Positions 9,935 through 60,693 of a DNA stretch of 64,000 nucleotides are shown here, piece after piece. The stretch is from assembly GCA_013335095.1 (NCBI GenBank), contig JAAXWF010000001.1, positions 86,797-150,796 on the forward strand, read 5' to 3'. Position 1 is the first letter of the stretch. Each line of letters begins with the position of its first letter. The stretch comes from a candidate division WWE3 bacterium. Lineage in GTDB: Bacteria; Patescibacteriota; 4484-211; GCA-002791395. Under the pieces are notes generated by a model. That model saw only the letters and a program-made list of their open reading frames with translations, ran no database searches and was not told where the DNA came from. A program made the translations under genes and the position numbers.

Positions 9935-10035
9935 GTAATTAATCTGTATTCTATATCATTGACTATAATCTGTTTATAGGTTAAGAAGATTAAGCGTAGT
10001 AGCAATCGGCATATTCACAATGGAAGAGGTGTATT

Positions 10036-38668: not shown

Positions 38669-38677
38669 TCGTTACCG

Positions 38678-39749: not shown

Positions 39750-40004
39750 ATGTATCATTTTATAAAACACCATATTTTTCAATACGCCATAATATTATTA
39801 TTATTCAGTGTCACTGTTACAAGTTTGTCGTCTAATATTGCTATTGGATATAAATTCCTGTTCTCTGGTATTGCGGTTGGAGTCTATTTCTTTTGGGCAA
39901 TATGGCATCACTGGGAGGATCATAAACTATCTTCAAAGACAATTCTAGAATATGCACTTTTGGTAACCCTCCTTCTTTGGCTGCTTTTGAATCTAGCAGT
40001 TTAA
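39750..40004 (+). CDS. small hypothetical membrane protein
   Basis: Two TM helices. Confidence 0.35.
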   Translation: MYHFIKHHIFQYAIILLLFSVTVTSLSSNIAIGYKFLFSGIAVGVYFFWAIWHHWEDHKLSSKTILEYALLVTLLLWLLLNLAV

Positions 40005-41212
40005 TCAACCGATAACGAAGATCTATCAAGATGTTCTAAATACTTACGTAATACAAACCCAGCCGCAAGTATGCTCATACCAAAGACAACCTGAAATAGT
40101 TGAGCAATTAACTTGTTATTTGAACCGATTCCAGTCTCTGGGAGCCGCTGAGCATCAGTACCTAATACAGCTGGCTTAATCAGGTTAGCGGGTGTTGAAA
40201 CAGCCGCTAGGACTTTTTCTGTCAATGTCTGTAGCGGTTGAATAATAGATTCTTGAAGTACTGTATTGTTATCACGTTCCTCAGATTCATTTTGCCGTCC
40301 TCCAATAGGTACCGAAGTTGGATAAACACTAATTCCAGGGTTTGGAGTAGGGCTTACAATGGCATTTGAGCTAACGTTATTTTCAACACGTGTCACCGCA
40401 GAGATCGAACCAGTTCTAATCATGCAACCCACATTATCGTTACAGTGATTATTTCCGGTATTTTGTATTTTATTAATCTGATTGGAAATTTCGATATTAT
40501 TAGTTTGATAAGCGGTTATAGAGCTCGACAGATTAACAAGAATGTTATTATTACTGCCATTCCCATTATTACTATTTGCCATATTCAATACTCCGTCTTC
40601 AAAACTTATAGGCAATGCCACATTTCTGCCCATATCATTGGTGACACTAACCTCATCGTAAATATTCCCTGTTGATATAACAACGTCACCTGAACTCCAC
40701 AAAGCACTATTATTACCCGTATTTGCATCGATATCCAGTGCATTACTTACAATTGAATTATTTGACTGCCCCCAATAGGGCTCGTTGTTAATATCGGCAC
40801 TAATAATATTTGTCGAAAAAGAACCATTATTGTCATTAGTAGAAGCAATATTACCTGCGTTATTATTTGTAACCTGGAGAGTATTAACATCACCCTCAGA
40901 ATTAACCAGAACAGAAGAATTAATATCTCCAGTTTCGAGTTTATTTTGACCATTATTATTTTGGATCACATTATCACCGGAGTTCAATAATTGATTGATA
41001 TCATTATTAATCGTCGTAGTATTTGATTGTAAAGCGCTCTGACTGCTTGTAATACTTACACTAGCACCATTAACACTATCAAGGCTATTAGAACTATTCG
41101 AGATAATTACGTTAGCATAAATAGGATTAACATATATAAGAGAAGATAAGGTCATACAGACCAACAGCTTCGGGGCAGTGACAGTCGTAGTAATCATTGA
41201 CCGACACTTCAT
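40001..41212 (-). CDS. N/S/T-rich secreted surface protein with LPxTG sortase sorting signal
   Basis: Signal peptide, low-complexity N/S/T-rich body with ANTGNN and NTGNNH repeats. The C-terminus is RLPETGIGS followed by a hydrophobic stretch and an RKYLEH tail. Confidence 0.7.
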   Translation of the reverse strand: MKCRSMITTTVTAPKLLVCMTLSSLIYVNPIYANVIISNSSNSLDSVNGASVSITSSQSALQSNTTTINNDINQLLNSGDNVIQNNNGQNKLETGDINSSVLVNSEGDVNTLQVTNNNAGNIASTNDNNGSFSTNIISADINNEPYWGQSNNSIVSNALDIDANTGNNSALWSSGDVVISTGNIYDEVSVTNDMGRNVALPISFEDGVLNMANSNNGNGSNNNILVNLSSSITAYQTNNIEISNQINKIQNTGNNHCNDNVGCMIRTGSISAVTRVENNVSSNAIVSPTPNPGISVYPTSVPIGGRQNESEERDNNTVLQESIIQPLQTLTEKVLAAVSTPANLIKPAVLGTDAQRLPETGIGSNNKLIAQLFQVVFGMSILAAGFVLRKYLEHLDRSSLSVD

Positions 41213-43512
41213 ATTGAGAGTAAAAACTTTTTTCGGATTACAAAGAATCCAGCAACCAATAAACTACTTATTAATATACCGACCTTCCACGGATTCAATT
41301 TTGGCCACTCAACTCGAGCACCCGCAACCTGAATATCAGAAGAACTATCATCTGTTGAAGAAGTCGCAGCGATCCGTTTAACTTTTAGTTTATCCGAAGT
41401 ATTACTGTTATCATTGTTAGAATCATTCTTAACAGACGCTCCTAATACAGATACTATAGACTTGCGAGAAGTGCCATTTATCGAGCTATTCTTACCCGTT
41501 GCATTTCGTTCAGGAGCCTTCACTGCATCATTATCTAGCACGGGGTGATTAGAAGAAGACTCAGTAGTACCAATTACTTCTAAAGCGATTGGCGTTGGGA
41601 AGGCTTGCACTTCTGAAGAAGAGTCCACAGCAACTTCGACAGAGACTTGCTGCTGATTTCCGATATTTTCATTGTTTGTATTGTTATCGTTATTCTCATG
41701 AGCGACTTCCTGCGCTTTATTAGTAAATTTACCCGTCCATTTCCCAAACAAATCATTGACTATGGTAAATACAACTCGTCCTCCTGCAAAATTGTTATTC
41801 AAAAAGTTCGTTATTGAGCTAACGATATTTACATCACCGGTGTTAATGCTTGTACTACCATCAAGATTATCCGCAATCTTGTTACCTCCAGTATTCGCAT
41901 TAATATTTATCGTATTATTAACGACAGCTTCATTAACTTGATTAATTGTGGTTGAATCTTCACGATTTACTACACCAGCATTCTCCGAATCTGTACCGTT
42001 ATTTGAATTATTAACATCAGATGAAATCTCGACAAGATCACCCGCACGATTTATATAATACGCTTTCAACTGTCCCCCTTGATTTAAGAATATTACATTC
42101 AAATCATCGCCAATAAAGTTTTGATTAGCAACAGTATTAACCTCGGCCGAAGTATTAACAGCTCCTGTTGTTATCGAATTTCCTTGCCCATCTCCATTAA
42201 TGTTATCTGATAATTTGTTTGACCCAGTGTTTGCGTCAATAACTAAAGTATTATTTATTGTGGCATTATTCTGTTGGTTGATTAATGTGTTTGATGAATC
42301 AGAGATTGTTCCATTATTAATTGAATTAGAGCCGTTACCTGAGTTATTAATTGCATAACTAGGATCAGCACTCTTTAATGGACTTTGATCAGGTAATACT
42401 ATATTGCCAGCAAAATCACCTAAAATATTTACGGTATTCACAACTAAGTCCGTGAGTGCAACAAAACTATTGTTGAGAAAATTAAATATATTCGCAACGA
42501 CGTTTGCATTACCAGTATTAATACTTGAATCACCAACGCTATCGGAAATCGTATTGGATCCTGTTTCTACGTCAATATTAATACTATTATCTACCTGTGA
42601 AAAATTATCAGTAGTAATAAATAAATTATTTCCACTTTGTATAATTCCAGAATTCACGCTGGATGATCCATTATTATCATTATTCACGCTTGCATCACCA
42701 TCACACGGGTTTATAGCGCTACAATTACTTGAGCCTGCGCTCAAAATAATATCTCCTGATTGATCGTCGGCTACATTAAACTCACTAGAAGAGATATCTG
42801 CACCCGTTAAATTAGTATTCGCAAAGTTGAAAATATTAACCGCACTTGTTACGTCTCCTGAATTAATAGTGCTACTACCACCTAGGTTATCGTGTATCTT
42901 ATTATCTCCAGTAACATAATCAACATTCACGCTGTTGTTAATATCTGTTTGATTCAATACATCGACAGTAGTGTCCGAAGCACCAGTTATGCTGCCGTTA
43001 TTCTCTGAACTCGCCTCATTTTGGATATTTGATACGCTAGTGTCTCCTCCATTTGAACCATCAAACAAACTCTGATTGTTATTCACATCATTATTGGTAT
43101 TAATAGATCCGTCAATAGAGCCGCTGTCGATTAAAGCGCTTCCTGAAAGATTATCATTATTATTCTGACCGCCATTAATTTGAGAATCGGGGTTATTCTG
43201 ACCACTATTTACAACTGTTGGAATTGGAGTCGGAGTTTTTGTTGGCTTTGGAGTCTTGGTTGGGATTGGTGTGTTAGAAATCTGGGTAACAGTAGGAACA
43301 CTTTGTGGCGTTGCCGTTGGTTGAATTGCTTGAGTCGGGGTTTGTGGAGGAGTCGGCATAGTCCAAACCGTAGTTGGCATAGCTGGTGGAGTAGGTATTG
43401 TTAAGGCTGGTGTTGGAGAAACATTAGTAACAGCGAAAGATAGTACTGGATTTACGATACTATATGCAATTTGTATTGTTATAAATGATTTTATTAATGT
43501 TTTGTTCATCAT
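41209..43512 (-). CDS. large N/T/S/G-rich secreted surface protein with Pro/Thr N-terminal linker and C-terminal TM anchor
   Basis: Signal peptide, PT-rich region, and repeated IDANTGSNKLSDN / INANTGGNKIADN motifs. ATGA overlaps the downstream gene. Confidence 0.6.
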   Translation of the reverse strand: MMNKTLIKSFITIQIAYSIVNPVLSFAVTNVSPTPALTIPTPPAMPTTVWTMPTPPQTPTQAIQPTATPQSVPTVTQISNTPIPTKTPKPTKTPTPIPTVVNSGQNNPDSQINGGQNNNDNLSGSALIDSGSIDGSINTNNDVNNNQSLFDGSNGGDTSVSNIQNEASSENNGSITGASDTTVDVLNQTDINNSVNVDYVTGDNKIHDNLGGSSTINSGDVTSAVNIFNFANTNLTGADISSSEFNVADDQSGDIILSAGSSNCSAINPCDGDASVNNDNNGSSSVNSGIIQSGNNLFITTDNFSQVDNSINIDVETGSNTISDSVGDSSINTGNANVVANIFNFLNNSFVALTDLVVNTVNILGDFAGNIVLPDQSPLKSADPSYAINNSGNGSNSINNGTISDSSNTLINQQNNATINNTLVIDANTGSNKLSDNINGDGQGNSITTGAVNTSAEVNTVANQNFIGDDLNVIFLNQGGQLKAYYINRAGDLVEISSDVNNSNNGTDSENAGVVNREDSTTINQVNEAVVNNTININANTGGNKIADNLDGSTSINTGDVNIVSSITNFLNNNFAGGRVVFTIVNDLFGKWTGKFTNKAQEVAHENNDNNTNNENIGNQQQVSVEVAVDSSSEVQAFPTPIALEVIGTTESSSNHPVLDNDAVKAPERNATGKNSSINGTSRKSIVSVLGASVKNDSNNDNSNTSDKLKVKRIAATSSTDDSSSDIQVAGARVEWPKLNPWKVGILISSLLVAGFFVIRKKFLLSI

Positions 43513-43593
43513 ATTTTTTCCTTCTACAAAAGGGTTTACCGCAGGAGAGAATAACTCCTCTCCTGACGGAAAACGCTCTTGCTTCTTTGCACA

Positions 43594-44799
43594 CTAACTG
43601 AGGAGATGCATTAGCATCATTAAAATGCTTGCACCATTCCAATCACCACTTAAATCATGAAGATCTGAGGTGGTGTCACCAATCACGTTTTGTCCTGCGG
43701 TATTATGTACCTCGACATCTGAATCTACGTCACCGGTATTCATATCATCTGAATTGTTATCAGAGATTTGATTATCTCCAGTGGCACCGTGTTGGTCTGC
43801 ATTATTATCGAAGGAGAGTTCATCATTGAACTGTTGGAACAGATCAGCAAAAGATAGTTCGAGACCAGCTTCGTTTTCTGTATCACGACCATTCTTTTCA
43901 TTAAGAACCTCAACATCGACATCACACATACAATCTCCTGCTGCAAGTACATTAGCACCAGCAGTATTGGCAATCTTGGCAGTCTGATCGACTGAGCCAG
44001 TTTCGGCAGCAGCTCCGCCTAGGTTATCCTTTGCGTCGTTGTCACCAGTGTTTGCATGTTGATCTAAATTGTTATCAACATCAACTTCATTTGATTGCAC
44101 CGCAACATTGGAGTGATTCACATTAGCGAAAACGCTATTTTCTGAATCTCGACCATTTGTTGAATTGGTTAAGGAGAATGAGCTAGATCCACCATTTCGT
44201 GAACCTAAGACAGCATGATTACCACCTGAGAGTGTTTCAACACTAGCATCTTGGTCAACATCTCCTGTTTGTACCGAGACTTCGGTATCAGAATTGTTGT
44301 CTTTCAAAGCATTATCGCCAGTATTAGCGTTTTGCTTAAGCTTGTTATTTACATCGACATTATTGGTTTGCATTAATGAAGATGCTTGTGTAGCGTTAAA
44401 TGCTGCAGTGTTTTCTGAATCTCGACCATTCTTTTCGTTAACGATCTCAACATCATAATCACAATCGCATTGTTGTAATTGCGCGACATTTTCACCAGCA
44501 TTGTTTACAACGCTTGCTTCCTGGTTTACATCACCAGTTTTAACATCGACACCTCCCAAATTGTCTTGTACTTTATTATCACCTGTATTAGCGTTTTGAT
44601 TGATATTGTTATCAATCTGAACATTATTAGTCTGATATACGCTAGATTCACGATTAATTTGAATCGTGCCTGAATTCTGGCTATCTCGACCGTTGGTGGA
44701 ATTCGTAATAGTATAAGTCGCAGCAAAAGCTGGTTGGGCCATTTGGAGCAGTAAAGCTCCGGTAGCTACTCCGGTTGCAATTTTTTGTGTTATTTTCAT
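43594..44799 (-). CDS. secreted repeat protein (four ~95-aa repeats with CDCD motifs)
   Basis: Signal peptide MKITQKIATGVATGALLLQMAQPAFA. The repeats contain NSTNGRDSQNS ... QNANTGDNKVQDN ... KTGDV ... CDCDYDVEIVNEKNGRDSEN. An AGGAGG RBS precedes the start. Confidence 0.6.
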   Translation of the reverse strand: MKITQKIATGVATGALLLQMAQPAFAATYTITNSTNGRDSQNSGTIQINRESSVYQTNNVQIDNNINQNANTGDNKVQDNLGGVDVKTGDVNQEASVVNNAGENVAQLQQCDCDYDVEIVNEKNGRDSENTAAFNATQASSLMQTNNVDVNNKLKQNANTGDNALKDNNSDTEVSVQTGDVDQDASVETLSGGNHAVLGSRNGGSSSFSLTNSTNGRDSENSVFANVNHSNVAVQSNEVDVDNNLDQHANTGDNDAKDNLGGAAAETGSVDQTAKIANTAGANVLAAGDCMCDVDVEVLNEKNGRDTENEAGLELSFADLFQQFNDELSFDNNADQHGATGDNQISDNNSDDMNTGDVDSDVEVHNTAGQNVIGDTTSDLHDLSGDWNGASILMMLMHLLS

Positions 44800-44861
44800 T
44801 CTATTCACCTCCTTTCGCAATTAGTCCCTTGTATAAGTGTTATCTTTATTTAACTAGGGCT

Positions 44862-45443
44862 TTAAAACTTAACTGATAAATTATCTTTATTTCCATCGAG
44901 CTCTCCAATTTGAATTGCAAAATCTTTAGCATCGTGCTCTACAATAAACCCAAAGTTACTCTTTTTAGTTGACTGAGGACGGACCTCGACATTACCTTGA
45001 TGAACTTGAGGTGCAACTTTGCCACCATCAGATTCAACAAGTCTCACTAAATCAAGAGGATTAAGATAGAGCACTTGATTACTGTCGTTCTTCAATGAAA
45101 CTTCAAATATTAAAAAAGCTTTACCATTTCTTGCTGTTGCACGATTACCTTTTACTAAAACTTCTTCCTGTTTTTGAACCGTAGTAATTTTTAGGTTTAT
45201 ATTTGCATCAGTAAAGTAGCCTTGTGCATCTCGAGCGATAAAATTATATTCTTTATTCAGAGTCTTTGAAGCTATGACACCTTCGGCATCATTTGTTTTT
45301 GATTTTGAAATAAAATAACTTCGAATACCTATCCCCATACCCACGACGACAATTATCATAACTAGCAAAAATATTTTATTTGAGATGAGTGATTTCATGA
45401 GTGGTTTTGACTGATTTGTTGTTTTCATATTTTTTGTATTCAT
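44862..45443 (-). CDS. membrane-anchored DUF4352-like protein
   Basis: N-terminal TM helix followed by a beta-rich domain. Confidence 0.4.
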   Translation of the reverse strand: MNTKNMKTTNQSKPLMKSLISNKIFLLVMIIVVVGMGIGIRSYFISKSKTNDAEGVIASKTLNKEYNFIARDAQGYFTDANINLKITTVQKQEEVLVKGNRATARNGKAFLIFEVSLKNDSNQVLYLNPLDLVRLVESDGGKVAPQVHQGNVEVRPQSTKKSNFGFIVEHDAKDFAIQIGELDGNKDNLSVKF

Positions 45444-45781: not shown

Positions 45782-45944
45782 AGCTATATTAAAAAACAAT
45801 GGTCAGTGAGGAAAATCGCAGCCTTGAGTTGTAGGCTGTTCACAATTATAGGGAGAGCTTATTTAGTGTCAATAGGATCGTCAATTAATCCCTTTGTAGA
45901 AGTTCAAATTGACATCAATACTTTTTGGCCGTATTATTCGCTTT

Positions 45945-47111
45945 ATGTCGAGACGAACAAATATCCAATACAAGAAAGCATTCGTTACGCTTTTTTTAAC
46001 AATGGTATTCTCTACTAAATTTGCAACTCATGTTACGGCAGCAACCTTTATAGCTGAAAATGCTCCTAAATTAAATAAAGAAGAAACCGTCGATGGGAAC
46101 TTCTATTCCCGTGGCAATCTAGTATCTGTCAATGGCACAATCCACGGAAATGCATATATAGCAGGCCAAACAGTAACAATTACTGGAAAAATCGATAAAG
46201 ACTTAACCGTTGCGGGACAAAACATCATACTTGATGAAGCATCAATATCAGGTGATGTGCGTTTATTTGGTGGCGAGGTCACGATACGAAAATCAGAAAT
46301 AGGAGACGAAGTAATTGTAGCTGCGGCAAAATTAAATATAGGTAAGGATACAAAAATTAACGGAACTACCATGGTAGCATCTGGAGAGTCCGTTATTGAT
46401 GCAAGCATTGGCGAGGATCTTATTACGGCATCAGGGTCACTTTCAAGTTCGGCAATTATTAACGGATCAGTATACATTGGAGGACGAAGTATTTCATTGT
46501 CTCCTGAAGCCCAGGTTCAAGGAGATATTTTCTACTCCTCAGACAACAAAGCACAAATAGATCCATCCACGAAGATTACGGGACAAGTCCACCAATTTCC
46601 ACCACTTCAAAGCGCACCTTCCAATAATCACATTCGCCTCACTATTTGGGGAATATTAACGTCACTAGTTTTAGGCTTTACCATCATTAGCCTTTTTTAC
46701 CATAAAACTTATGAACTATCCCAAATACTTATAGAGAGGACTTGGAGTTCATTTGGATGGGGGTTTGCAACGATTATACTTACTCCGATAATTAGTGTGT
46801 TATTAATCACTACGTTAATAGGATTACCATTAGGTATTATTACATTATTTTTCTATATACTTGCCATTTATATCAGTCGCATTTTTATGGCATATACACT
46901 AGGTCGATTATTTATCGGTCGTGGCAACACCGATACTTCACAGAGACGATGGTATACTCTCGGTGCTGGTATTCTCGCGTACTTCATAATCACCTCTATT
47001 CCATTTATAGGGCCTATATTCACCCTGTTTAGTATTACATTAGTCTTAGGGGCGATGTTTATTGAAGGTCGCCATTGGTTTATTTCTAGAAATGTCAAAG
47101 AAAACAACTAA
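45945..47111 (+). CDS. secreted beta-helical repeat protein (YvlB/DUF4097 or bactofilin-like repeats) with C-terminal multi-TM anchor
   Basis: Repetitive G-x-hydrophobic periodicity (VNGTIHGNAYIAGQTVTITGKIDKDLTVAGQNIILD...), then four TM helices. Confidence 0.45.
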   Translation: MSRRTNIQYKKAFVTLFLTMVFSTKFATHVTAATFIAENAPKLNKEETVDGNFYSRGNLVSVNGTIHGNAYIAGQTVTITGKIDKDLTVAGQNIILDEASISGDVRLFGGEVTIRKSEIGDEVIVAAAKLNIGKDTKINGTTMVASGESVIDASIGEDLITASGSLSSSAIINGSVYIGGRSISLSPEAQVQGDIFYSSDNKAQIDPSTKITGQVHQFPPLQSAPSNNHIRLTIWGILTSLVLGFTIISLFYHKTYELSQILIERTWSSFGWGFATIILTPIISVLLITTLIGLPLGIITLFFYILAIYISRIFMAYTLGRLFIGRGNTDTSQRRWYTLGAGILAYFIITSIPFIGPIFTLFSITLVLGAMFIEGRHWFISRNVKENN

Positions 47112-48180
47112 AATCACAACCGAAGCACTTCCCACTCAACCCCAATCACAACATGCACTTTCTGTGTATATATTCTGCGGCAGCCTAACACTCATTTCTA
47201 GTCTCGGTTTTTGGTTAGGTCTCAACGCTTCACTAAAATATCCATATGTCGCTATTCAAGGATCGTCTAATTTTTATTGGAATGATATTGGATTAATGGC
47301 AATTTCGTATCTAACTATTTTTACCATGATTGTATTCATATCTGGGTTGGTAAAAAATCCACTAGTCCGTCGTAGCCTTCTGGCAATTATCCCACTTACA
47401 ATATCTATATTTGCAATGAGGTTTATATTTACTCTAGGCTTAACATTTCTTCTCCTTCTTGTCATCCTAGCAGTAGATTATTTCAGCCATAAAGATATTA
47501 GTAACCAGGTTATCCCTAATCTACGACAGATTTACATGACTCGCCTATCCTGGATAAGCACAGTGTTTGCATTAATAATCGCAATACTAGTTTATTATAG
47601 TGGACCATCAAACCTAGATAAAATTCATTTATCTGTCCCGTCTTCGTTCTTTGACCAAGCAGCAAACGTATCGCGACCACTCTTAGAAGAACAGATTAAG
47701 CAACAACAGAACAAATTAATAGATAAAATAATTCTTCAGCTCGAAACGCAGTTCCCTGGATTAAAAGAGGTTAATTATCAGGATAAAGTCGAATTGCTTT
47801 CGGGTACAATTACGCCAGAAGTTCGTAAGGCGCTCTCTTCACAAGGATTTTCAGACAACCAAATAGAACAGATTGCGACGCAACTAAAGGAAAACATGCC
47901 TCAAGAAACATCACAGCCACAAGTAAACATCATTAATGAAACCATTGATCAGGCTAAAAAAGATCTCCAAAGTATTGTCAATAATTTCATTGATCAAAAT
48001 ATCAACATGGTACCTGGTATTTTATCTGCGACAATTTTCCTATTTTTCAATTTTATTGGAATACTATTTAACTTAGTTGCAGTTGGGCTGGCAATAATTT
48101 TTATAAGAATTCTCAAGAGATTTGGCTGGATAAGAATTGAAACCAAGCAGATTGATGCGCAGACCTATACAATAGCCTGA
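47092..48180 (+). CDS. hypothetical polytopic membrane protein
   Basis: Multiple TM helices flanking a central hydrophilic region. Confidence 0.45.
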   Translation: MSKKTTKITTEALPTQPQSQHALSVYIFCGSLTLISSLGFWLGLNASLKYPYVAIQGSSNFYWNDIGLMAISYLTIFTMIVFISGLVKNPLVRRSLLAIIPLTISIFAMRFIFTLGLTFLLLLVILAVDYFSHKDISNQVIPNLRQIYMTRLSWISTVFALIIAILVYYSGPSNLDKIHLSVPSSFFDQAANVSRPLLEEQIKQQQNKLIDKIILQLETQFPGLKEVNYQDKVELLSGTITPEVRKALSSQGFSDNQIEQIATQLKENMPQETSQPQVNIINETIDQAKKDLQSIVNNFIDQNINMVPGILSATIFLFFNFIGILFNLVAVGLAIIFIRILKRFGWIRIETKQIDAQTYTIA

Positions 48181-48430: not shown

Positions 48431-49145
48431 CGGCATTCTACTAATAGATAAACCAAGCGGTATAACAAGTCATGATGTAGTTGATCGTATCCGTAAGATA
48501 ACAAACGAGAAAAAGGTTGGACACGCAGGTACACTAGATCCACTAGCTACCGGACTCCTAATAATTTTAGTCGGTAAGCAAGCAACTCGATTAAGCCAAA
48601 AATTAATTGGCTATGATAAACGATACTTGATTACAACTGCACTTGGTTTTACAACAAATACACTTGATACAGAAGGAATAATGACGGATCAGTTGGATCC
48701 TATGTCTGATCGAATCAAAACGGCAGCCCGCAAATTTAAAGAGGCAGCACATTCGTTCATTGGAAAGTACGAACAGGAAGTGCCCTCATTTAGTGCTGTC
48801 AAAATAGGTGGTAACAAACTATACGATCTAGCTCGAAAAAAACCAGAAGAATTACAAAAAATCACATTACCTAAGCGAGAAGTAACTATTTACGCAATTG
48901 AAACGACATCTTCTCCACCTACGCAAGAAGGTTATCCCCAAGTAATAATAGACTGTACAGTCAGCAGCGGGACATACACCCGCGCCTTAGTTCGTGATAT
49001 ATCTCAAAAGCTTGAAATACCAATGGTCCAGACAGCCTTACGTCGAATTCGTATTGGAAATTTTGATATATCTCAAGCCAAAACCCTAGAAGATGTAACT
49101 CCAAGTGACATCATTCCCCTTTCGTCTTTGCAGATTAACGACTAA
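48420..49145 (+). CDS. truB: tRNA pseudouridine(55) synthase TruB
   Basis: GILLIDKPSGITSHDVVDRIRKI...KVGHAGTLDPLATGLLIILVGKQATRL includes the catalytic Asp motif. Confidence 0.9.
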   Translation: MVNNGILLIDKPSGITSHDVVDRIRKITNEKKVGHAGTLDPLATGLLIILVGKQATRLSQKLIGYDKRYLITTALGFTTNTLDTEGIMTDQLDPMSDRIKTAARKFKEAAHSFIGKYEQEVPSFSAVKIGGNKLYDLARKKPEELQKITLPKREVTIYAIETTSSPPTQEGYPQVIIDCTVSSGTYTRALVRDISQKLEIPMVQTALRRIRIGNFDISQAKTLEDVTPSDIIPLSSLQIND

Positions 49146-49217
49146 AGTACCGATAGTATCTGTCCTTGTCGATACAACTCTACTGAGTTATAATACTCAC
49201 GCATACAAACCCATTAA

Positions 49218-49293
49218 GGCGGGTTCGTCTAGGGGACCAGGACGGCGGGTTCTCAGTCCGCAAACACGGGTTCGAATCCCGTACCCGCTACCA
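49218..49293 (+). tRNA. tRNA-Glu (anticodon CTC)
   Basis: GGCGGGTTCGTCTAGGGGACCAGGACGGCGGGTTCTCAGTCCGCAAACACGGGTTCGAATCCCGTACCCGCTACCA folds as a cloverleaf and resembles E. coli tRNA-Glu. Anticodon loop TTCTCAG. Confidence 0.85.
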
Positions 49294-49402
49294 TACACAA
49301 AAAATATGGAAACAGAAATTGTTACAAAATACTTAAAAAAGGATCTAACTCGGCTAGCGATAGCAACGGCCCTAAATTTTTTAATCTTGGGGTTACTCTT
49401 CT

Positions 49403-50236
49403 TTAAAGTGATACCGCTTTAATTAATTCTCCGACAGCAATATAACGTTGATGATCAAATCCCGGTGGTATACAAGTCATAAGCGTTAACATTTTCTTAT
49501 TCGACGGTTGATTCGTAATAAATACATCCTTTGGAGTAACAACGCCAGTTTGGCTAATCTGATAAGTATACTCGGTTCCCATATAAATAACGCGTACGAC
49601 ATCGCCTGCCTTTATTTTTGGTAAATCAGTAAAAATAGATTCATAGTCATTTGATGCCAGTAGGGGTAACTTAGAGTGACCAAATAGGAATGAGTTCCCA
49701 TTTTGGCCCGGTAATGCAGATCCTTTTAGATGGGCGACGGCTCGAGTTAGTACCCGATCATAAATGTGTTCGTCTGTCCCATTCACATTCAGCTCAACTT
49801 TACGATTGTCGATTCCTAGCGCCGGGACAGATACGAAGACTTCACTATCAATCTTTTCTGAAAGTACGCTTCCAAGTGGTGATGAATCTTGCCGAAGAAT
49901 CGAAAGAGAGGAACCCGGGGTTGGTGAAGGTATCATTTTTGTCGGTGAAGGTGTTGATTTATTGGGGTTTAATAATAAATTTCCAAAGCCGGTACGAATA
50001 TCTATTGTTGTGCCATCCTCCGAATTCATCTGGACAGCAGAAATCACAGACGGAGTATCGACGGTAAATAACGCGGTGTTATCGAATTTCGGTAATGTAT
50101 TGCTCCATATGAAATAGATCCAACCCAAATATACTAATCCAACTCCCCCTACAGTTATCAGGGCAGCTCCTATCAAACGGGGAAAATGATATCTGTATTC
50201 AAGGACGATCGGTTCCATTCTGTTCGTCGTTTCCAC
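49403..50236 (-). CDS. sortase family transpeptidase
   Basis: N-terminal TM anchor. Catalytic His in FLFGHS. Cys in the TLxTC motif LTLMTCIPPG, followed by a conserved Arg. Confidence 0.8.
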   Translation of the reverse strand: METTNRMEPIVLEYRYHFPRLIGAALITVGGVGLVYLGWIYFIWSNTLPKFDNTALFTVDTPSVISAVQMNSEDGTTIDIRTGFGNLLLNPNKSTPSPTKMIPSPTPGSSLSILRQDSSPLGSVLSEKIDSEVFVSVPALGIDNRKVELNVNGTDEHIYDRVLTRAVAHLKGSALPGQNGNSFLFGHSKLPLLASNDYESIFTDLPKIKAGDVVRVIYMGTEYTYQISQTGVVTPKDVFITNQPSNKKMLTLMTCIPPGFDHQRYIAVGELIKAVSL

Positions 50237-51146
50237 GGATCTGTCGGCGAACTAAGCTCCGCATTTCTTGATGCTTACGCCATTGATTTATTTTCTGAAT
50301 TACTATGTATGCTAATGCACTAAAAAATGCTACGACACCGACAATCAACAAATAAATCCAAATAGTTGTAGCCTGTTTTAAATAGACATCAACAGCAACC
50401 GAGGCATTTTTTATTTCAACGACATCTGTAACCTGTTTATAATAACCAACTTTATTAATTTCAACATAATATTGACCCGCGGGTACAAAAAACTGATATT
50501 GGCCAAAGACATCTGAGGTGTATGGGTTTCTCTGGTTATCAAATGTTTGAGCCGGCCAGACCTCCCAACGGCCATTGTTTAGCCAATACAAGGTAACTTC
50601 AACCCCTGCTAATATAGTATGTTCACTTAACGTTCTAACTTTACCCGAAAGCTGAACTAATGAATTGGGATCAACAGTGGCTGTTGTAGCAACCGTTGGA
50701 GTCGGGACCTCTTGAGTGCTTTGTTCTTGGGCATATACGCTGGTGGGCTTAAAATACGAAAAGATATCAATATTAAACGGCTGGGTAAAGGTTCGAAGTA
50801 ATATATATGCGCTTCCTGCAAGAATTAAACCAAAAATACTATATGTGATAGTTGCCCGGGCTTGTTCTTGTTGCCGTGTATCATCCTGAGCGGTGACATA
50901 CAGATATCCAGCATAAATCATAAATGCCAACGATGCTATAACGGCTGTTATAACTGACATATTAAACATATAAATTGCTAAAACGGGTAGTTGGCGAACC
51001 GCACACGATGGAACTAAAAGAGGATTCGCTAGTGAATCACAGGGTATACGAGTTGGATACGGCGTGGTTGCATGAACATGAGCAGGTACGACCAAAAATA
51101 CGGCTAAAATAACAAAGATAAAAATAGAATGCTTAATAAATCTCAT
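50199..51146 (-). CDS. two-helix pilin-like domain (paralog 2) fused to a carboxypeptidase-regulatory-like beta-sandwich domain and C-terminal TM
   Basis: Signal peptide; hydrophobic helix 1 VITAVIASLAFMIYAGYLYV; loop TAQDDTRQQEQARATITYS; helix 2 IFGLILAGSAYILLRTF. Then VEVTLYW...FVPAGQYYVEINKVGYY. Its 3' end overlaps the sortase gene by 38 nt. Confidence 0.5.
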   Translation of the reverse strand: MRFIKHSIFIFVILAVFLVVPAHVHATTPYPTRIPCDSLANPLLVPSCAVRQLPVLAIYMFNMSVITAVIASLAFMIYAGYLYVTAQDDTRQQEQARATITYSIFGLILAGSAYILLRTFTQPFNIDIFSYFKPTSVYAQEQSTQEVPTPTVATTATVDPNSLVQLSGKVRTLSEHTILAGVEVTLYWLNNGRWEVWPAQTFDNQRNPYTSDVFGQYQFFVPAGQYYVEINKVGYYKQVTDVVEIKNASVAVDVYLKQATTIWIYLLIVGVVAFFSALAYIVIQKINQWRKHQEMRSLVRRQIRGNDEQNGTDRP

Positions 51147-51253
51147 AGTACGTCAAAATGCCCTATTACCACAAATACAATCCTAACATTGACAAATACG
51201 ACTGTCAACGGAATTTCCTGATAATATAAAGAAAATCCGATATTATTATTAAC

Positions 51254-51931
51254 ATGTCCTATGTAAAAACAACATTACTTATATTTGGTTGTGTCTCAAT
51301 AATAGCATTCACCTATCCCCATAATGTGAATGCGCTAGTCAATAGTAGTATCGAACCCGCACAGGCAACAGTACCTACAGATTCGCTATCTTCATTTAAA
51401 TTATCAATTATTCCAGAATACGAGTCGATTAATCGGATCTATTTGTTACTTCATTATTCTCCTACCTTAGTGGAAATTCAAAGCATTCAAACGGACAATA
51501 GCTTTATTGACTTTTGGTATCAAATACAAGTAAACAAGGTGGATGGCATAATTATTCTTGAGGGTGGTAAAGGACAGAGTAATCAAACTAAGTCCCCATA
51601 TCCAATCGCACAGTTCAACTTTATTCCTAAAAAAGAGGGTAAAATAGAATTTTCAATATCTCACACCAGTAAGATGTACGCTCAAAACGGAGATGAGCTT
51701 GGCGTAAGTTTTGATACGAAGGCTCTATATGCAGCAATAAAGCAAGAGATACTCACGCCAAGAATAAAAAACTCAGTGCAACCGACTAAATTAATAGAAA
51801 AAGTAGAGCCAAATATCTACCAGATTGAGAAACCCGTTGATTTTGCCCAATCGAACCTACACTATAGAAGTATTCTTTATACAGGCATAGTCGCATTCTT
51901 GATTGGATTGTTTATACTGAAAAAGACATGA
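51254..51931 (+). CDS. hypothetical secreted protein with C-terminal TM anchor
   Basis: Signal peptide and C-terminal hydrophobic helix. Confidence 0.4.
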   Translation: MSYVKTTLLIFGCVSIIAFTYPHNVNALVNSSIEPAQATVPTDSLSSFKLSIIPEYESINRIYLLLHYSPTLVEIQSIQTDNSFIDFWYQIQVNKVDGIIILEGGKGQSNQTKSPYPIAQFNFIPKKEGKIEFSISHTSKMYAQNGDELGVSFDTKALYAAIKQEILTPRIKNSVQPTKLIEKVEPNIYQIEKPVDFAQSNLHYRSILYTGIVAFLIGLFILKKT

Positions 51932-52338
51932 AAATCACATATAAAATTTTATTATCCTTTATTGCCCTAATATGTATTATCACCATGCCCATGCTGGTAT
52001 ATAGATCTAAATCAAATAAACAAACCCAAATCAGTGAACCTACATCGACCCCGTCACCCACACCAACGCCTCCATATTTATCCTATTTAGAGAGACAAGC
52101 AGATTATACAGGAACAGTAGAATCAGTTAAGCTGCCTAATGAAATCACACTAGCGGCTTTAAACCAAAGCAAGTTGGAACTTCAACTAGAACCCAATATT
52201 CCTATTTATATATCTAAAGAAATGTCCAGCGGTTCCCATGACATCACAGTAACAACAGTAAATGATATACAGATTGGGATGACTTTAAGCGTATACACGA
52301 AAGATCATAATATATTAGCGATCTTTATTACTAAATAA
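51928..52338 (+). CDS. hypothetical membrane-anchored protein
   Basis: N-terminal TM and a PTSTPSPTPTPP linker. ATGA overlaps the upstream gene. Confidence 0.4.
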   Translation: MKITYKILLSFIALICIITMPMLVYRSKSNKQTQISEPTSTPSPTPTPPYLSYLERQADYTGTVESVKLPNEITLAALNQSKLELQLEPNIPIYISKEMSSGSHDITVTTVNDIQIGMTLSVYTKDHNILAIFITK

Positions 52339-55901: not shown

Positions 55902-58900
55902 TCAATCGTCATCAAGCGCCTTATACTTTCGAGCCTCACGTAATATACCTGCCCGTTGTTCAGGATCAAGAGTATCTAGTCGGCGCAGGAACTCTGGCAA
56001 GCTGACTTTCTTTCCGGATGTGTTATCAGTTATTAAGTCCTTCAATGTGGCATCTCCAGCTTGACCATCAAGATGCTCCAAACCTGTACGTTTCTGGCCT
56101 GTCCTCTTATCGATCGCCAAATCTTGCTTGGATATCTTCTGATTCTGCATGTCAAAGATAGGTAGTGTTTGTGGCATTTGATCATGTACTGTTTCTGCCT
56201 TAGGTAGGTCAGCAAAATTAACATTTTTAATCTCAGGATGTTTATTGAGCCAGAGTCGGAATCTCTCGGCTTGTGCTTTTCGACGACCAATAACTGTAGT
56301 CTTATCTTGTGCTTTACGCTGAAGCATGCGCATACCTTCCTTACTACCAGCCTTAGAACCTCTCTTACCCGCTTCAAGGGCTTTATCTCGTGCAGTTTTA
56401 GCATCCTCAGCGGCCATTTGGAACTGCTCTGTCATAGCACCACCAGCTCCAAGAGTCGCAACACTAAATGCACGGCTACCGAAGTTTGATACTCCACGGC
56501 GCATTTTCTCTAATCGAGATGGAGGTACTAATTTATCCTGAGCATCTTGTTCGGCAGATTTTCGTGTTCGATAAGCTAAGCTGGCATTACGACGAGCAGC
56601 GGTATCCTTACTAAACTTAGCTGCAGCATTTGCTAATCCGGCCGCAGATGTCGGAATTGCCAAACCATCAACGTTTATCATCTTTTGAGGTAATTTGACA
56701 CCAAACCAAAGTGTAATCATCGCAATCAATGACGAGCCAAATCCAGCAAACATTGATTTTTCGTCAGCACCAATAGTTAGAAGTAATATGCCGACACAAA
56801 GAACAGCAGCAACAGCAGTCTGAACAAATGTTATACCAACGATAGCACTAAACCATTTAGAACGGAGACCATCAAACCAGGGCATGACACTGAATGCAAA
56901 TATTGCAGGGGCAACAATTACTGCGAGCCAAATAATCGCATATCGGGCAAAGAATAGTAATAGTAATAACATAACCTGCATAAAGATGATTCCGATGAAT
57001 ATGACCGCGAACAAAATAATACCGATCAGAGCGCCACCACCAGTTGCTGCAACTAATGACATGAGGCCCATGACTGCGGTAACAGCCGCTGAGGCAAAAC
57101 TACCCATAACCGCAACACCAGCACCTACACCAGCTACGCCCACGACAGCCTTATTTCCTGCAGCAGTAAATGACTGCTGTAAAATTTCTTGAGTGAATTG
57201 GAATAGAGCCATTGAGAGGAAGTTGTTTATATCCAATAATGCTTGGACGATTATCAAGCTGAAGTTAGCCAATACAACACCCATCAATAACTGAGGTAAT
57301 ATTACCGAAATATGCCACTGTTCAGGTTGATATCGCAATATCGTCATTACTCCGATAACGACAAAGATTAGAACAAATAATACGTTTACTACATTTCTAA
57401 TGATGTCGTAGATACTGATAATTGCTTGATCTTGTGTTAAAGCTCGTGTCTGAAGACCGTACTTGAAGATAGCACTCATGACACCAGGAACATGCTTAGC
57501 AAACTGATCACCAACGGCACAAGCTGCACCAGCAGCAAGTCCATTAATTTGAGCACCTATATCTAAATTTAGATTGATATCATTAGAGCTACCACCACCA
57601 GGAACCGCAATCGTGACCATCTTACCACTCTGATCATTAGCAACTTTGCGAGCAAATGCTTCACAATTAAACTCAAGGTCAATGGTTACCTGAGGAGGAC
57701 TGACAGTACCAGACGAGTCAATTGAAATACGACGCGATTGATTAACAGGCTGCCCATCGATATCTCCCTCAACTACTATTTCATAAGTATTTGTAGCAAT
57801 ACCAATATCGGTTAATGCATCACAATATATCGGAGCACCCGAAGCATCTGTACAGATTTGGCCGACCTGTGAGCCATCAACAGGAGCAGGCAAAGATACG
57901 ATAAAACTTCCAGATGCAGGAACAACACCTAATTGCCCATCCACTGTAGGTTCATCTGACAATAGATCCGTTCCATTTGATTGGAATAATATGCAGTCGT
58001 TTACGATGTCACATTGTACGGCAACATCATTAGTGACCTGATAAACATTGACATTAACACGTCCATCCACTTGAGACTGACCTGGGATCTTAACGGTAAC
58101 GCCCACTGGTGAGCGTAATCCAGGAGTCGCCGCAAGTGCACTTTGGGGAGTTGCAGCGTCTTTAATCCAGTTCAATAGTGCAAGATTATATGTATCGGGC
58201 CCCTTAGATGCAGTTTGCAGACCGCCGACATTCACGCGATGGAAAGAACCTTGAGCGTAATCAACAGATTCTAAGCCGGCATATTGGTTATATCGAACAA
58301 GTACATTGAGCCCTAGGTTACCACTTGCAGCAGCAGGCGCTCCAGGTCTCGTAATAGGCCGCAAGTCAGCAGGAGGAATGTGGACTTGCCCAATACGGTT
58401 TGTATAGTAGAGATTATTTTCTGCAGGGACATCGATGCCCTCAGACCCAACTTCAGCAACTGTTACCCGAGCACCTGGTGCATATTGTGTACCACCAGGA
58501 CCAGGCACATTAATTAACAAACCCTCATCAAATCCTTCATTACCGGTTGCAGATTCATGCGCAACAACATCGATTCGACGAGGTCCATCAGTCGATCTAA
58601 ACAATCCAGTCCCTGACGCTGCCCGGTCAAATCGAGATAGATCAGCAACACTATTATCTAATATAACAGTAACATCATCACTACGAGCGACAGTACCACT
58701 ACCTGCAACCATATTTGAACCGAATTGATAAATACCCCGAACAGCAATACCTTGATTTCCTGTACCTGTTGAAGGTAAGTATACATATCTAACATTTTGA
58801 TCATCATTATTTGAACCTGAATAATCAATGCCCAGATCACTTTCAACTAATAACCGAGCATTAGGCATACGAACAAGACTTGGGCCAGAAACCGTCAATT

Positions 58901-60143
58901 GTCGCGAGCTTAATAAACTACCAAATTCATTTGTAATAGTACCCCATACAATTAAACGATTATCAGGATATATAATTTGATACGAAGTTACTGGTGGAAC
59001 ATCTATATTCAACATTCGACGCCAGTCCGACGATTGTTCAAATGACATATCGTTCTCAACAACCCATACCTGTCCGACTCCATGGCTATGCGAATTCAAT
59101 GCAGACTGTCCATCCCAGTCAGAATATGAAGGGCTACTACTTTCACGTCTCCACACAATTATTTCATAAAATCCTTCTGGAGCAAAAGCCTGAAAAGAAA
59201 ATGTACTAGTTGTACTGCCATTTGCCGGATCTACAGATTCAACATTCCGGATTGCTCGTCCTTTGATAATTGGAAAGTCTAATACCCCAGCTAATTGCCC
59301 CGAAGCCGGGCCTGTAGTTGCCAGAGTCCGAGTTACCCGTTGAGCCCAGATTTCGTACTGACTACCACTAGGTTCCTTAGCACTAATACTTATACGAAGC
59401 GTGTCGTTTGGAACGACAGGAAATGTGTTTATGTTATTACTAATATCAAGTTCATTACGTGTTGTAACAAAGGCATGACGGACTGCTATTTGTTCAAAAT
59501 TGCGGCTAGCTCCAGTAACTTCGACCTGAGAATCTACAACCTTTACTTGACTATCGGGCAAATAGTTTGCTTTATAGGAGAACACATCTAGAATTTTATC
59601 GTCGTTCTCAGGCATTCTAAATGACCAATCGCGTTGTATCCCGCTAGAAGTACGGCAAGGATTTGTGGGTGTATCGGTAGTATCGTTTGCAGCGGGCGCA
59701 AATGAAGCGCTGGTACATTCGACACGGCTGACAGTACCGCCATTTAAAATAAAGGGAAAGTAAACACCATAATATGAACCAGCTGGCAATCCCTGGACTT
59801 GGAAACTGCCGTCTGTTCTAATCTGAGTACGTACCGCTAAGTTTGAATTTATCCAAGATTCACTCGTAAATACACCTTGCTCGTTAAACCCAGCCCAAAA
59901 GTCAAAGGTGAAAACGTATACAGGAAGCCCAGCCAGCTCAGCAAACGCCTGAGTAGGATCGTACGCTTCGCCAATGAAGGCAGGGATTATTCTTCCAGTG
60001 AAGATATCCGCATTGGTTGGTCGGTTTACCGCCTCGGCTGCCGGGGCTTGACTAAGTAGTACACAGGCTACTAATGCAATAGTCAAGGACCCCCCGACAA
60101 ACCTTAGCATTTTTCGTATATTCATCTTTCTCAACTCGCTCAT
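55902..60143 (-). CDS. giant (1413 aa) surface protein: signal peptide, ~880-aa extracellular region, VirB6/TrbL-like polytopic domain, basic cytoplasmic tail
   Basis: Signal peptide ...ALVACVLLSQAPAAEA. A 6-8 TM bundle spans aa ~905-1155. A ~260-aa Lys/Arg-rich tail follows. This architecture is typical of VirB6-like proteins in monoderm type IV secretion systems. Confidence 0.5.
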   Translation of the reverse strand: MSELRKMNIRKMLRFVGGSLTIALVACVLLSQAPAAEAVNRPTNADIFTGRIIPAFIGEAYDPTQAFAELAGLPVYVFTFDFWAGFNEQGVFTSESWINSNLAVRTQIRTDGSFQVQGLPAGSYYGVYFPFILNGGTVSRVECTSASFAPAANDTTDTPTNPCRTSSGIQRDWSFRMPENDDKILDVFSYKANYLPDSQVKVVDSQVEVTGASRNFEQIAVRHAFVTTRNELDISNNINTFPVVPNDTLRISISAKEPSGSQYEIWAQRVTRTLATTGPASGQLAGVLDFPIIKGRAIRNVESVDPANGSTTSTFSFQAFAPEGFYEIIVWRRESSSPSYSDWDGQSALNSHSHGVGQVWVVENDMSFEQSSDWRRMLNIDVPPVTSYQIIYPDNRLIVWGTITNEFGSLLSSRQLTVSGPSLVRMPNARLLVESDLGIDYSGSNNDDQNVRYVYLPSTGTGNQGIAVRGIYQFGSNMVAGSGTVARSDDVTVILDNSVADLSRFDRAASGTGLFRSTDGPRRIDVVAHESATGNEGFDEGLLINVPGPGGTQYAPGARVTVAEVGSEGIDVPAENNLYYTNRIGQVHIPPADLRPITRPGAPAAASGNLGLNVLVRYNQYAGLESVDYAQGSFHRVNVGGLQTASKGPDTYNLALLNWIKDAATPQSALAATPGLRSPVGVTVKIPGQSQVDGRVNVNVYQVTNDVAVQCDIVNDCILFQSNGTDLLSDEPTVDGQLGVVPASGSFIVSLPAPVDGSQVGQICTDASGAPIYCDALTDIGIATNTYEIVVEGDIDGQPVNQSRRISIDSSGTVSPPQVTIDLEFNCEAFARKVANDQSGKMVTIAVPGGGSSNDINLNLDIGAQINGLAAGAACAVGDQFAKHVPGVMSAIFKYGLQTRALTQDQAIISIYDIIRNVVNVLFVLIFVVIGVMTILRYQPEQWHISVILPQLLMGVVLANFSLIIVQALLDINNFLSMALFQFTQEILQQSFTAAGNKAVVGVAGVGAGVAVMGSFASAAVTAVMGLMSLVAATGGGALIGIILFAVIFIGIIFMQVMLLLLLFFARYAIIWLAVIVAPAIFAFSVMPWFDGLRSKWFSAIVGITFVQTAVAAVLCVGILLLTIGADEKSMFAGFGSSLIAMITLWFGVKLPQKMINVDGLAIPTSAAGLANAAAKFSKDTAARRNASLAYRTRKSAEQDAQDKLVPPSRLEKMRRGVSNFGSRAFSVATLGAGGAMTEQFQMAAEDAKTARDKALEAGKRGSKAGSKEGMRMLQRKAQDKTTVIGRRKAQAERFRLWLNKHPEIKNVNFADLPKAETVHDQMPQTLPIFDMQNQKISKQDLAIDKRTGQKRTGLEHLDGQAGDATLKDLITDNTSGKKVSLPEFLRRLDTLDPEQRAGILREARKYKALDDD

Positions 60144-60170
60144 TCCAAACTAAATCAACTACCCGTTTAT

Positions 60171-60506
60171 TTAGAAGCCGAAAACGGCGCCCACATTTAA
60201 CAGGCCAGCTAATAATCGGAAGATAACGAATGCTGATGCGATAATAATCAACCCAATAACTGCGTTTGTAATAGTGCCACGAGCACCTTCAGCTTTACCG
60301 GAGTCATCACCAGCGGTAACGTAGTTAAAACCACCGATCAGAATAAAGATCAAACAAACTAATGCACCTAAAGCGATAGCCCAGTTAATTAACGTTGCGA
60401 CTAATTCTCCAAAATTACCAGTAAAACCTGCCGTTGGAGTTGGAACGACTAGACTAGAGGGCAAGGGTTGCTGTGCTTGAACTTTATTTACTAAAAAATT
60501 AAGCAT
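60171..60506 (-). CDS. two-helix pilin-like protein (VirB2/TrbC-like), paralog 3
   Basis: Signal sequence; helix 1 LINWAIALGALVCLIFILIGGFNYV; loop TAGDDSGKAEGARGTITN; helix 2 AVIGLIIIASAFVIFRLLAG. A strong AGGAGG RBS precedes it. It lies immediately upstream of the giant VirB6-like gene. Confidence 0.55.
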   Translation of the reverse strand: MLNFLVNKVQAQQPLPSSLVVPTPTAGFTGNFGELVATLINWAIALGALVCLIFILIGGFNYVTAGDDSGKAEGARGTITNAVIGLIIIASAFVIFRLLAGLLNVGAVFGF

Positions 60507-60693
60507 ACTATTTGCTCACCTCCTTAAAAAATAATGTAGATGTTGTTAAACTCATTTTAAATCAGTTTATCTTTCAATGATCACTGAAATACCGATATGT
60601 ATAAGTAAATCATACACGCATAATCAATGTCAAGAGTAGTCTGCGATCACTTTTTAACAGGACATTATATCAGACTTTAGTAACGATCCCACC

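Follow-up and report, generated by a model that had tools for sequence, protein, structure and literature searches.

We analysed a pair of overlapping genes on the minus strand of a 64,000-nucleotide stretch of DNA (hereafter the window) from a genome of candidate division WWE3, a lineage of the candidate phyla radiation (CPR; Patescibacteria). One open reading frame (ORF), at 50199-51146, starts with ATG and encodes a 315-amino acid (aa) membrane protein with fused domains, here called the fusion protein; the other, at 49403-50236, encodes a sortase of 277 aa when read from a GTG codon. An earlier note on this DNA had reported that the pilin-like gene overlaps the sortase gene by 38 nucleotides (nt), and this is the length obtained when counting from the GTG at 50236. 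An in-frame ATG at 50218 yields a sortase of 271 aa ('MEPIVLEY...') and an overlap of 20 nt, and both the NCBI record, in which the identical proteins are placed on a 536-kb contig, and the gene call in a 71%-identical relative (locus L001) use the equivalent start. The 20-nt overlap is therefore the more likely one. It covers 50199-50218, with the fusion stop codon TGA at 50199-50201 and the sortase ATG at 50216-50218. The next candidate start is a TTG within 'RLIG' that would drop the N-terminal charges of the sortase, so the overlap stands for any plausible start. The concern that it might be an artefact of start-codon choice was thus answered: it survives the conservative ATG, and 12 distinct loci keep both genes.

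Upstream of the pair, a sigma-70-like promoter match (TTGACA-17-TG-TAGGAT, 51180-51208, minus strand) lies 34 nt from the fusion ATG; it matches the consensus and no more than that, as the promoter scan did not return more sites than expected from shuffled sequence. The same scan gave no comparable match on the minus strand between the fusion and sortase genes, and a terminator scan of the locus found none. The pair is flanked by a cohesin-family gene on one side and by tRNA-Glu and TruB on the other.

Anatomy of the fusion protein and the sortase

The 315-aa protein had been described as a pilin-like hairpin joined to a CarboxypepD_reg-like domain and a C-terminal transmembrane (TM) helix, and both Pfam matches and an AlphaFold model support this architecture. 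PF18895 (T4SS_pilin, named for the type IV secretion system, T4SS) matches residues 64-119 at 26.5 bits against a cutoff of 26.6, while PF13620 (CarboxypepD_reg) matches residues 165-256 at 29.7 bits, below its cutoff of 32.3; the precomputed Pfam domains of the exact 315-aa protein list both (PF18895.6 and PF13620.13). In addition, the profile of the fusion family recovers, at 2.4e-21, a clear PF18895 protein of the window that scores 45.3 bits in Pfam. The AlphaFold model, built on 15 family members with a mean predicted local distance difference test score (pLDDT) of 76, contains a signal helix, a hairpin of helices 46-85 and 90-121, a disordered linker (129-157), a beta-sandwich (164-256) at pLDDT ~90, and one long helix spanning residues 262-310.

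All features of the protein are encoded on the minus strand. Residues 1-26 (51069-51146) form a predicted signal peptide with cleavage at VHA|TT, and V-x-A| sites occur at the equivalent place in family members. The VirB2-like (PF18895) hairpin, delimited by Pfam, alignment and model at residues 36-130 (50757-51041), has the layout expected of that family: a signal peptide, two hydrophobic helices and a short cytosolic loop (TAQDD). In the family alignment two invariant cysteines (C36 and C48) precede TM1, followed by the TAQDD loop and TM2, and the hairpin ends in '...FNIDIFS', resembling stand-alone pilins, which stop at 'NIDVFG'. The alignment also identifies a linker motif, Y138-A139-Q140 (50727-50735), as a putative signal-peptidase-I-type site. 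Next comes a transthyretin-like/CnaB-like beta-sandwich (residues 162-258; 50373-50663; Pfam, model and Foldseek) with residues W194, W197 and Q205-R-N-P208 invariant across the family. Foldseek matched it to carboxypeptidase D transthyretin-like domains, CnaB2, transthyretin and Gram-positive pilin domains at E ~1e-5, and its seven-stranded fold gave a TM-score of up to 0.83, normalised to the target, with the carboxypeptidase D domains; as modelled, this transthyretin/CnaB fold is a generic stalk fold. TM3 (residues 262-284; 50295-50363; alignment and model) carries the invariant W263 and G270, and the basic cytosolic tail (residues 285-315; 50202-50294; sequence, alignment and model) carries the invariant W289, its final codons overlapping the sortase start. 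The tail is 31 aa long here and 30-45 aa across the family, and it forms a conserved helix.

When 1.84 billion cluster representatives were searched exhaustively with the family profile, the full-length architecture proved rare (~14 of them). The matches at E<=0.001 numbered 13,672, in many architectures, so that the hairpin and the sandwich and TM module are very common building blocks. Among these matches, the proteins P0079-P0155 share a transthyretin-like domain of the form 'DPYGYVY...WxxWPA..NQxNPQxTD..G.Y.F.VP.G.YY' followed by a TM helix and a basic tail, and the same module forms the C-terminus of many large surface proteins rich in fn3 and Big domains. From these sequences the module has the look of a generic stalk for membrane anchoring. 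Around the fusion gene, the flanking ORFs examined contained no T4SS Pfam domain.

The overlapping gene (49403-50218, minus strand, for the 271-aa product; longest ORF from the GTG at 50236) encodes the only sortase in the window. It scores 78.2 bits with PF04203 (cutoff 26.6) and 61.8 bits with TIGR01076 (cutoff 39.35). A TM anchor (residues 15-38; 50105-50176) is connected by a disordered linker to the catalytic barrel (49406-49825), which the model places at residues 127-270 and which Foldseek matches to solved sortases at E ~1e-11. The histidine in FGHS and the cysteine in TLMTC, which had been recognised earlier, are indeed the catalytic residues of the family: His181 (49676-49678), Cys249 (49472-49474) and Arg258 (49445-49447), in the 271-aa numbering, are invariant among 28 homologs. 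The lid of the enzyme is not identifiable, because residues 53-123 are disordered in the model (pLDDT <50); a conserved '[VI]LG[DE]' lies upstream of strand 1, and the sequence contains no DPW-type lid motif.

The NCBIfam class C model (NF033745) scored 68 bits against a cutoff of 160, class D models 51-54 bits (cutoffs 140 and 165), class E 52.5 (160), class F 26.6 (166) and class GN 26.8 (158), and models of classes A and B were not listed at E<=0.01. The best sequence matches in the PDB are class C and D enzymes (E ~1e-13; 28-33% identity to class C). Structure was discarded as a guide to class, with Foldseek returning classes C, A, E and D alike at E ~1e-11. The enzyme thus reaches no class cutoff, housekeeping or other, and was not assigned to a housekeeping class; as judged from its sequence, it is a member of a distinct, unclassified CPR lineage.

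Conservation of the pair and of a divergent cohesin-family gene

The fusion gene is followed on the same strand by an orthologous sortase gene (44-72% identity) at all 12 distinct loci, which belong to one WWE3 subclade (the window, L001/2, L003, L004/5, L006, L009, L010, L011, L012, L013, L021 and L022), and the sortase is present wherever downstream sequence is available. The window and L001 copies are ~72% identical for the sortase and likewise for the fusion protein. The junctions range from overlaps of 29 nt (L021), 26 nt (L001), 20 nt (window), 8 nt (L003, L004 and L012), 4 nt (L022) and 1 nt (L010 and L011) to gaps of 2 nt (L006 and L013) and 15 nt (L009), several being of the ATGA or ATGnnTGA type. 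Comparison of the junction sequences from nine loci showed that the window reads 'GTCCTTGA' in place of the common ancestral 'ATGATTGA', with a new ATG located 12 nt upstream. The start codon has moved in the window yet the overlap was retained, indicating that the coupling was kept. The earlier note had judged the coupling of a sortase to a pilin-like gene without an LPxTG motif to be unusual, and this view gains weight from its retention at 12 loci and from our not finding it described in the literature searched. A plasmid search with the fusion protein returned a single match, to an internal sandwich repeat of a Streptococcus leucine-rich-repeat protein, which was set aside as irrelevant.

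The sortases of the fusion-linked clade share features in and next to their TM anchor. G24-x-x-G27 and a juxtamembrane 'LPxF' are present in all 15 sequences of this clade, and G27 and LPxF are each absent from the 13 sortases of other clades. Together with W263, G270 and W289 of the fusion protein, these residues would fit a contact between the TM helices of the two proteins.

Across the intergenic region from the fusion gene lies a divergent gene of 225 aa (51254-51931, plus strand) that belongs to a cohesin family, as identified by a family profile (E = 5e-87) and by alignment of C-termini. Members of this family (215-241 aa) are the divergent neighbours of the sortase locus in all 12 lineages with upstream sequence, whether or not the fusion gene is present. 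In 10 of the 12 lineages the C-terminus carries LPSSG, LPNSG, LPVSG, LPKGG, LPVGG or LPDAG; '[TI]xxPT' and a TM helix come next, and in most cases a basic tail closes the protein. Two orthologs pass the gathering score of 24.1 for Cohesin (PF00963), those of L015 (37.9 bits) and L007 (28.6 bits), and it is on these two that the cohesin assignment rests; the L010 ortholog scores 18.4 bits, the window copy has no Pfam match, and a profile search of this family against the PDB found nothing. Four lineages (L007/8, L014, L015 and L016), whose sortases are at most 42% identical and whose neighbourhoods are unrelated, keep the cohesin gene and have no fusion gene. Because these lineages keep the cohesin-sortase pair, we take the divergent pair to be the conserved core and the fusion gene to be an insertion in one subclade; likewise, the fusion protein is an add-on that is dispensable for the basic reaction, since sister-clade sortases keep the cohesin protein without it. 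Judging from the motif and its placement, the cohesin-family gene, which the earlier note had missed, is a probable conserved substrate of the sortase in relatives of the window genome.

In the window itself the cohesin copy reads 'SNLHYRS' in place of LPx[S/G/A]G, and in the L001/2 ortholog the motif is likewise gone ('SGVNIYT'); both proteins retain the TM helix and a KKT tail. The cohesin proteins of the window and L001 are only 36% identical, compared with ~72% for the sortase and the fusion protein. No LPxxG is hidden in other frames of 51750-51990, and an 'LPNRT' in frame 0 of that interval was judged coincidental. A six-frame scan confirmed the previous suggestion that the window has only one clear LPxTG protein: the sole C-terminal signal of the LPxTG or LPxxG type is in an Asn/Ser/Thr-rich protein of 403 aa (40001-41212, minus strand) that ends in LPETG (40130-40144), a TM helix and RKYLEH... 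Since LPx[S/G/A]G has decayed in the window cohesin, this LPETG protein is the only candidate substrate seen there.

The LPETG gene belongs to a four-gene island (40001-45443, minus strand) that encodes a 193-aa DUF4352-like protein and three Asn/Ser/Thr-rich proteins (408, 767 and 403 aa). The latter contain 'NTGDNxxxDNxGG...TGD' repeats without a Pfam match, and LPETG is found only in the last; the 767-aa protein has a C-terminal TM helix and RKK without a sorting motif. L021 shares at least the first two island genes (one of them at 81% identity); L004 and L006 lack the island.

A regex scan for dockerins found none in the window or in the loci collected earlier. At L020 (681-5900), a more distant member of the sortase subfamily (P0032) is encoded after a multi-hydrolase of 1406 aa whose C-terminal end consists of two dockerin-like repeats (DMNGDCIVTVVD / DLDNSGNIDVVD), an arrangement which hints at cohesin-dockerin surface display tied to CPR sortases.

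Possible roles of the fusion protein

The earlier note had proposed that the 315-aa protein might carry a noncanonical sorting signal or act in pilus assembly, and neither proposal was sustained. A regex scan of the fusion protein for an LPxTG-type pentapeptide returned nothing, and among 17 homologs the segment before TM3 varies (LKQAT, LKPGV in L021, LQEGR in L022, MTKSS in L006, LEPAP and LQTAP). This juxtamembrane segment is equivalent to the final beta-strand of the sandwich, a strand that reads 'IELKP' in hundreds of large, unrelated surface proteins ending in the sandwich and TM module; beyond TM3 comes a tail of 30-45 aa that forms a conserved helix. The segment has neither the proline at P3 nor the glycine at P1' that are strict in the LPxxG of the cohesin family. 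With respect to pili, the sortase falls far short of class C (68 versus 160 bits), Foldseek does not separate classes A, C, D and E, and family alignments contain no invariant lysine in either the fusion protein or the cohesin neighbour. The fusion sandwich has no conserved isopeptide residues, and with no lysine conserved, a role for it in isopeptide formation or as a source of a pilin lysine was rejected. Lacking both a sorting pentapeptide and a conserved nucleophile, the fusion protein is most likely not a substrate.

Nevertheless, a substrate with a noncanonical signal has to be weighed, as sortases are usually encoded beside a dedicated substrate. At L017 and L018, genes for large LPATG and LPVTG proteins lie just upstream of the sortase genes, and the fusion protein does have a C-terminal TM helix with a basic tail and a CnaB/transthyretin ectodomain fold like that of sortase-assembled pilins. 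The signal would then have to be an 'LxxA[PST]xxW' segment ahead of TM3, a shape that is seen in some family members only and is broken by sequences such as LKPGV, LQEGR and MTKSS. The segment is shared with modules outside the fusion family, it departs from the strict LPxxG of the neighbouring substrate, and the long tail with its conserved helix and W289 is unlike the short tails of sorting signals. We therefore regard this possibility as very unlikely.

The linker between the hairpin and the sandwich raises a different prospect. A139 is invariant, and the motif [VAI][YFW]A|[QNV] occurs in all 15 fusion-family members within a linker that is otherwise variable and disordered. The motif satisfies the -3/-1 rule of signal peptidase cleavage and resembles the N-terminal cleavage sites of fusion-family proteins (VHA|T, ASA|Q, AHA|Q and VFA|Q); equivalents are found after the hairpins of multi-hairpin proteins (SAYA|Q, SVYA|V, QVFA|A and SVYA|A). 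The stand-alone pilins, with their 'NIDVFG' ends, terminate immediately ahead of this position. We place at roughly even odds that [VAI][YFW]A|Q is a processing site, at which cleavage between A139 and Q140 would release a ~113-aa pilin and a 176-aa type I membrane protein; the odds were lowered to this level because the site sits further from TM2 than is usual. VirB2-like hairpins also occur inside larger proteins (e.g. a subtilase) and as tandem arrays, as seen among P0053, P0075, P0080, P0160 and P0164, each hairpin being followed by an AxA-like '[SV][YF]A|[QAV]' motif. The recurrence of the motif suggests that such larger proteins and arrays are polyproteins cut by signal peptidase.

If the fusion protein were cut at A139|Q140, the sortase could in principle join LPxxG or LPETG proteins to the new N-terminus of the sandwich fragment, a protein stalk that would replace peptidoglycan, or it could ligate or cyclise the released pilin. 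Sortases are transpeptidases able to join a threonyl acyl-enzyme to an N-terminal amine, and conjugative VirB2/TrbC pilins are processed and cyclised by a dedicated enzyme. The invariant Ala-Gln in a variable, disordered linker and the recurrence of the motif after other hairpins, where it matches their N-terminal cleavage sites, are also in keeping with this polyprotein model. On the other hand, there is nothing LPxTG-like near the pilin C-terminus, and an N-terminal glutamine is prone to pyroglutamate cyclisation, which would block the nucleophile. Furthermore, the cohesin substrate and its sortase are also kept by clades that have no fusion gene, so that some acceptor besides the fusion protein must exist. 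We consider such a reaction unlikely; if true, it would give sortases a new acceptor or a new role, here in an episymbiotic CPR bacterium.

In the explanation that we favour, and hold to be about an even proposition, the fusion protein serves the sortase as a co-translated membrane accessory or partner and is not itself a substrate. The core of the system would be the divergent pair, a single-cohesin protein with LPx[S/G/A]G and a TM helix and a membrane-anchored sortase that presumably cleaves the cohesin signal and thereby fixes the protein to the envelope. In one subclade a third gene would have been inserted directly upstream of the sortase gene and become translationally coupled to it. 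Its product, with three TM helices, would run from a secreted, disulfide-bonded N-terminus through the VirB2-like hairpin and a flexible linker bearing the [VAI][YF]A|Q motif to a sandwich held near the membrane on the outer face, then through TM3 to a basic cytosolic helix. We infer that it would lie beside the TM anchor of the sortase as a stoichiometric partner. In the window genome and its closest relative, where the cohesin motif has been lost, the intact sortase would act on LPETG-type proteins such as that at 40001-41212.

The most serious competitor to a membrane partner is that there is no direct link, the fusion protein being one more surface protein built from a VirB2-like hairpin and an anchor module that shares a promoter with the sortase by chance in a compact, syntenic region. 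The whole neighbourhood is syntenic in the clade, PF18895 hairpins and sandwich and TM modules are very common (the 13,672 matches noted above), two other PF18895 genes in the window are both away from the sortase, and in clades without the fusion gene the sortase pairs with its cohesin substrate. Against this, the full-length architecture is rare and was found only directly upstream of the sortase at 12 of 12 loci, the start/stop coupling survived a move of the start codon, and the TM region of the sortase carries clade-specific motifs. On balance we think the absence of a direct link possible, though rather doubtful.

Several observations weigh against a functional partnership and temper our preference for it. 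The pair sits in a clade-wide synteny block (SBP-Cpn10-Cpn60 ... TruB ... CAP-pilin-DUF2298), so its adjacency is not independent evidence of a functional link, and short overlaps are frequent in compact CPR genomes. The TM features of the sortase and the presence of the fusion gene trace back to a single evolutionary origin, hence phylogeny confounds their correlation. Some 18-20 residues separate TM2 from the putative processing site, more than in the typical c-region of a signal peptide. The window cohesin is itself not a substrate, which makes the local logic weaker than in relatives, and in sequence the fusion protein does not resemble SafA (52 aa, one TM helix, FPW motif), the non-substrate sortase partner considered below.

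Relation to known systems and implications

SafA is a non-substrate TM protein encoded beside a sortase in Actinobacteria, 52 aa long with a single TM helix and an exoplasmic FPW motif (PMC9282373). As with the fusion protein, the gene for this membrane protein adjoins that of the sortase; SafA is co-transcribed with SrtA and acts through contact with the TM or juxtamembrane region of the sortase without being a substrate (PMC9282373). The two systems differ in that safA lies downstream of a class E housekeeping sortase, while the fusion gene lies upstream and encodes 315 aa with three TM helices and no FPW. Moreover, no AxA site is evident after the sortase TM helix, hence a mechanism of the SafA type, in which the sortase is protected from signal peptidase, is not implied; that idea was dropped and only the logic of a membrane partner was kept, so that the fusion protein would be SafA-like in logic and not in ancestry.

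The cohesin-sortase pair is reminiscent of dedicated pairs such as SrtB-IsdC and the class GN 'marine' sortases, in which a sortase is encoded beside one cognate substrate with a variant motif, here LPx[S/G/A]G on the cohesin protein. It differs from them in that no class cutoff is reached, P1 is Ser, Gly or Ala and not Thr, the motif is lost in the window genome, and an extra gene, most likely for a non-substrate, lies between substrate and enzyme. ScaE of Ruminococcus flavefaciens, a single cohesin with LPXTG that is anchored by a sortase (PMC5301203), has the same composition as the cohesin family (signal peptide, one cohesin, Pro/Thr-rich linker, sortase motif and TM helix); by comparison, no dockerin protein was found in the window, and the window cohesin copy lacks both a Pfam match and the motif.

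Many Patescibacteria carry VirB2-like PF18895 pilins and arrays of them (bioRxiv 10.1101/2025.01.22.634366), which are widespread in the group. The fusion hairpin resembles these VirB2/TrbC pilins of T4SSs in forming a two-helix hairpin after a signal peptide and in its profile relation to bona fide PF18895 proteins, but it is joined to a sandwich and TM3 and is encoded beside a sortase and not VirB4 or other T4SS genes. With sortase-assembled Gram-positive pilins it shares the CnaB/transthyretin ectodomain fold, and class C is also where the sortase finds its best sequence matches; it differs from them in having no LPxTG, no pilin-motif lysine and no conserved isopeptide residues, and the sortase itself stays below the class C cutoff. 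The Pam pili of CPR bacteria (bioRxiv 10.64898/2026.03.03.709456) were excluded as unrelated, being a donor-strand system without a sortase.

Elsewhere in the window, a tRNA-Glu(CTC) gene (49218-49293, plus strand) separates truB from the 3' end of the sortase gene, and a 105-aa ORF that crosses it (49105-49422, plus strand) is spurious. Two regions contain other PF18895 pilins. In the first (35937-39748, plus strand), a 139-aa pilin is accompanied by a DUF2298 membrane protein and a CAP-domain protein with a C-terminal TM helix, a trio kept in L004, L006 and L022. In the second (55902-62250, minus strand), the stand-alone pilin at 60171-60506 (45.3 bits) lies between ORFs of 1413 and 518 aa that have no Pfam match, and this region may be a divergent T4SS-like or surface cluster. 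Two consecutive membrane proteins are encoded at 45909-48180 (plus strand). The first (400 aa) has a weak bactofilin-like domain at its N-terminus (27.1 bits, cutoff 27.9); the longest ORF of the second (372 aa) reaches 50 nt into the first, probably through over-extension of the start codon. The interval 10001-12000 has a GC content of 0.53, compared with ~0.39 elsewhere, over an 840-aa ORF (10036-12558).

CPR bacteria are enriched in sortases, and in Microgenomates these enzymes are nearly ubiquitous (PMC6744442); a full-text search of the literature found no description of a CPR sortase substrate, of the fusion protein or of a CPR cohesin-sortase pair. The locus offers a CPR sortase paired with its own probable substrate, a cohesin protein bearing the unusual motif LPx[S/G/A]G; this points to cohesin-based surface display in ultra-small and presumably host-attached bacteria. 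It also provides a candidate for a new sortase-associated membrane factor that combines a VirB2-like hairpin with a transthyretin-like domain, and the conservation of [VAI][YF]A|Q suggests that the abundant pilin-array and hairpin-fusion proteins of CPR bacteria are polyproteins cut by signal peptidase. The fusion family is small (~14 clusters) and confined to a small WWE3 subclade. These results do not overturn current understanding; rather, they provide a lead for the biology of the CPR cell envelope.

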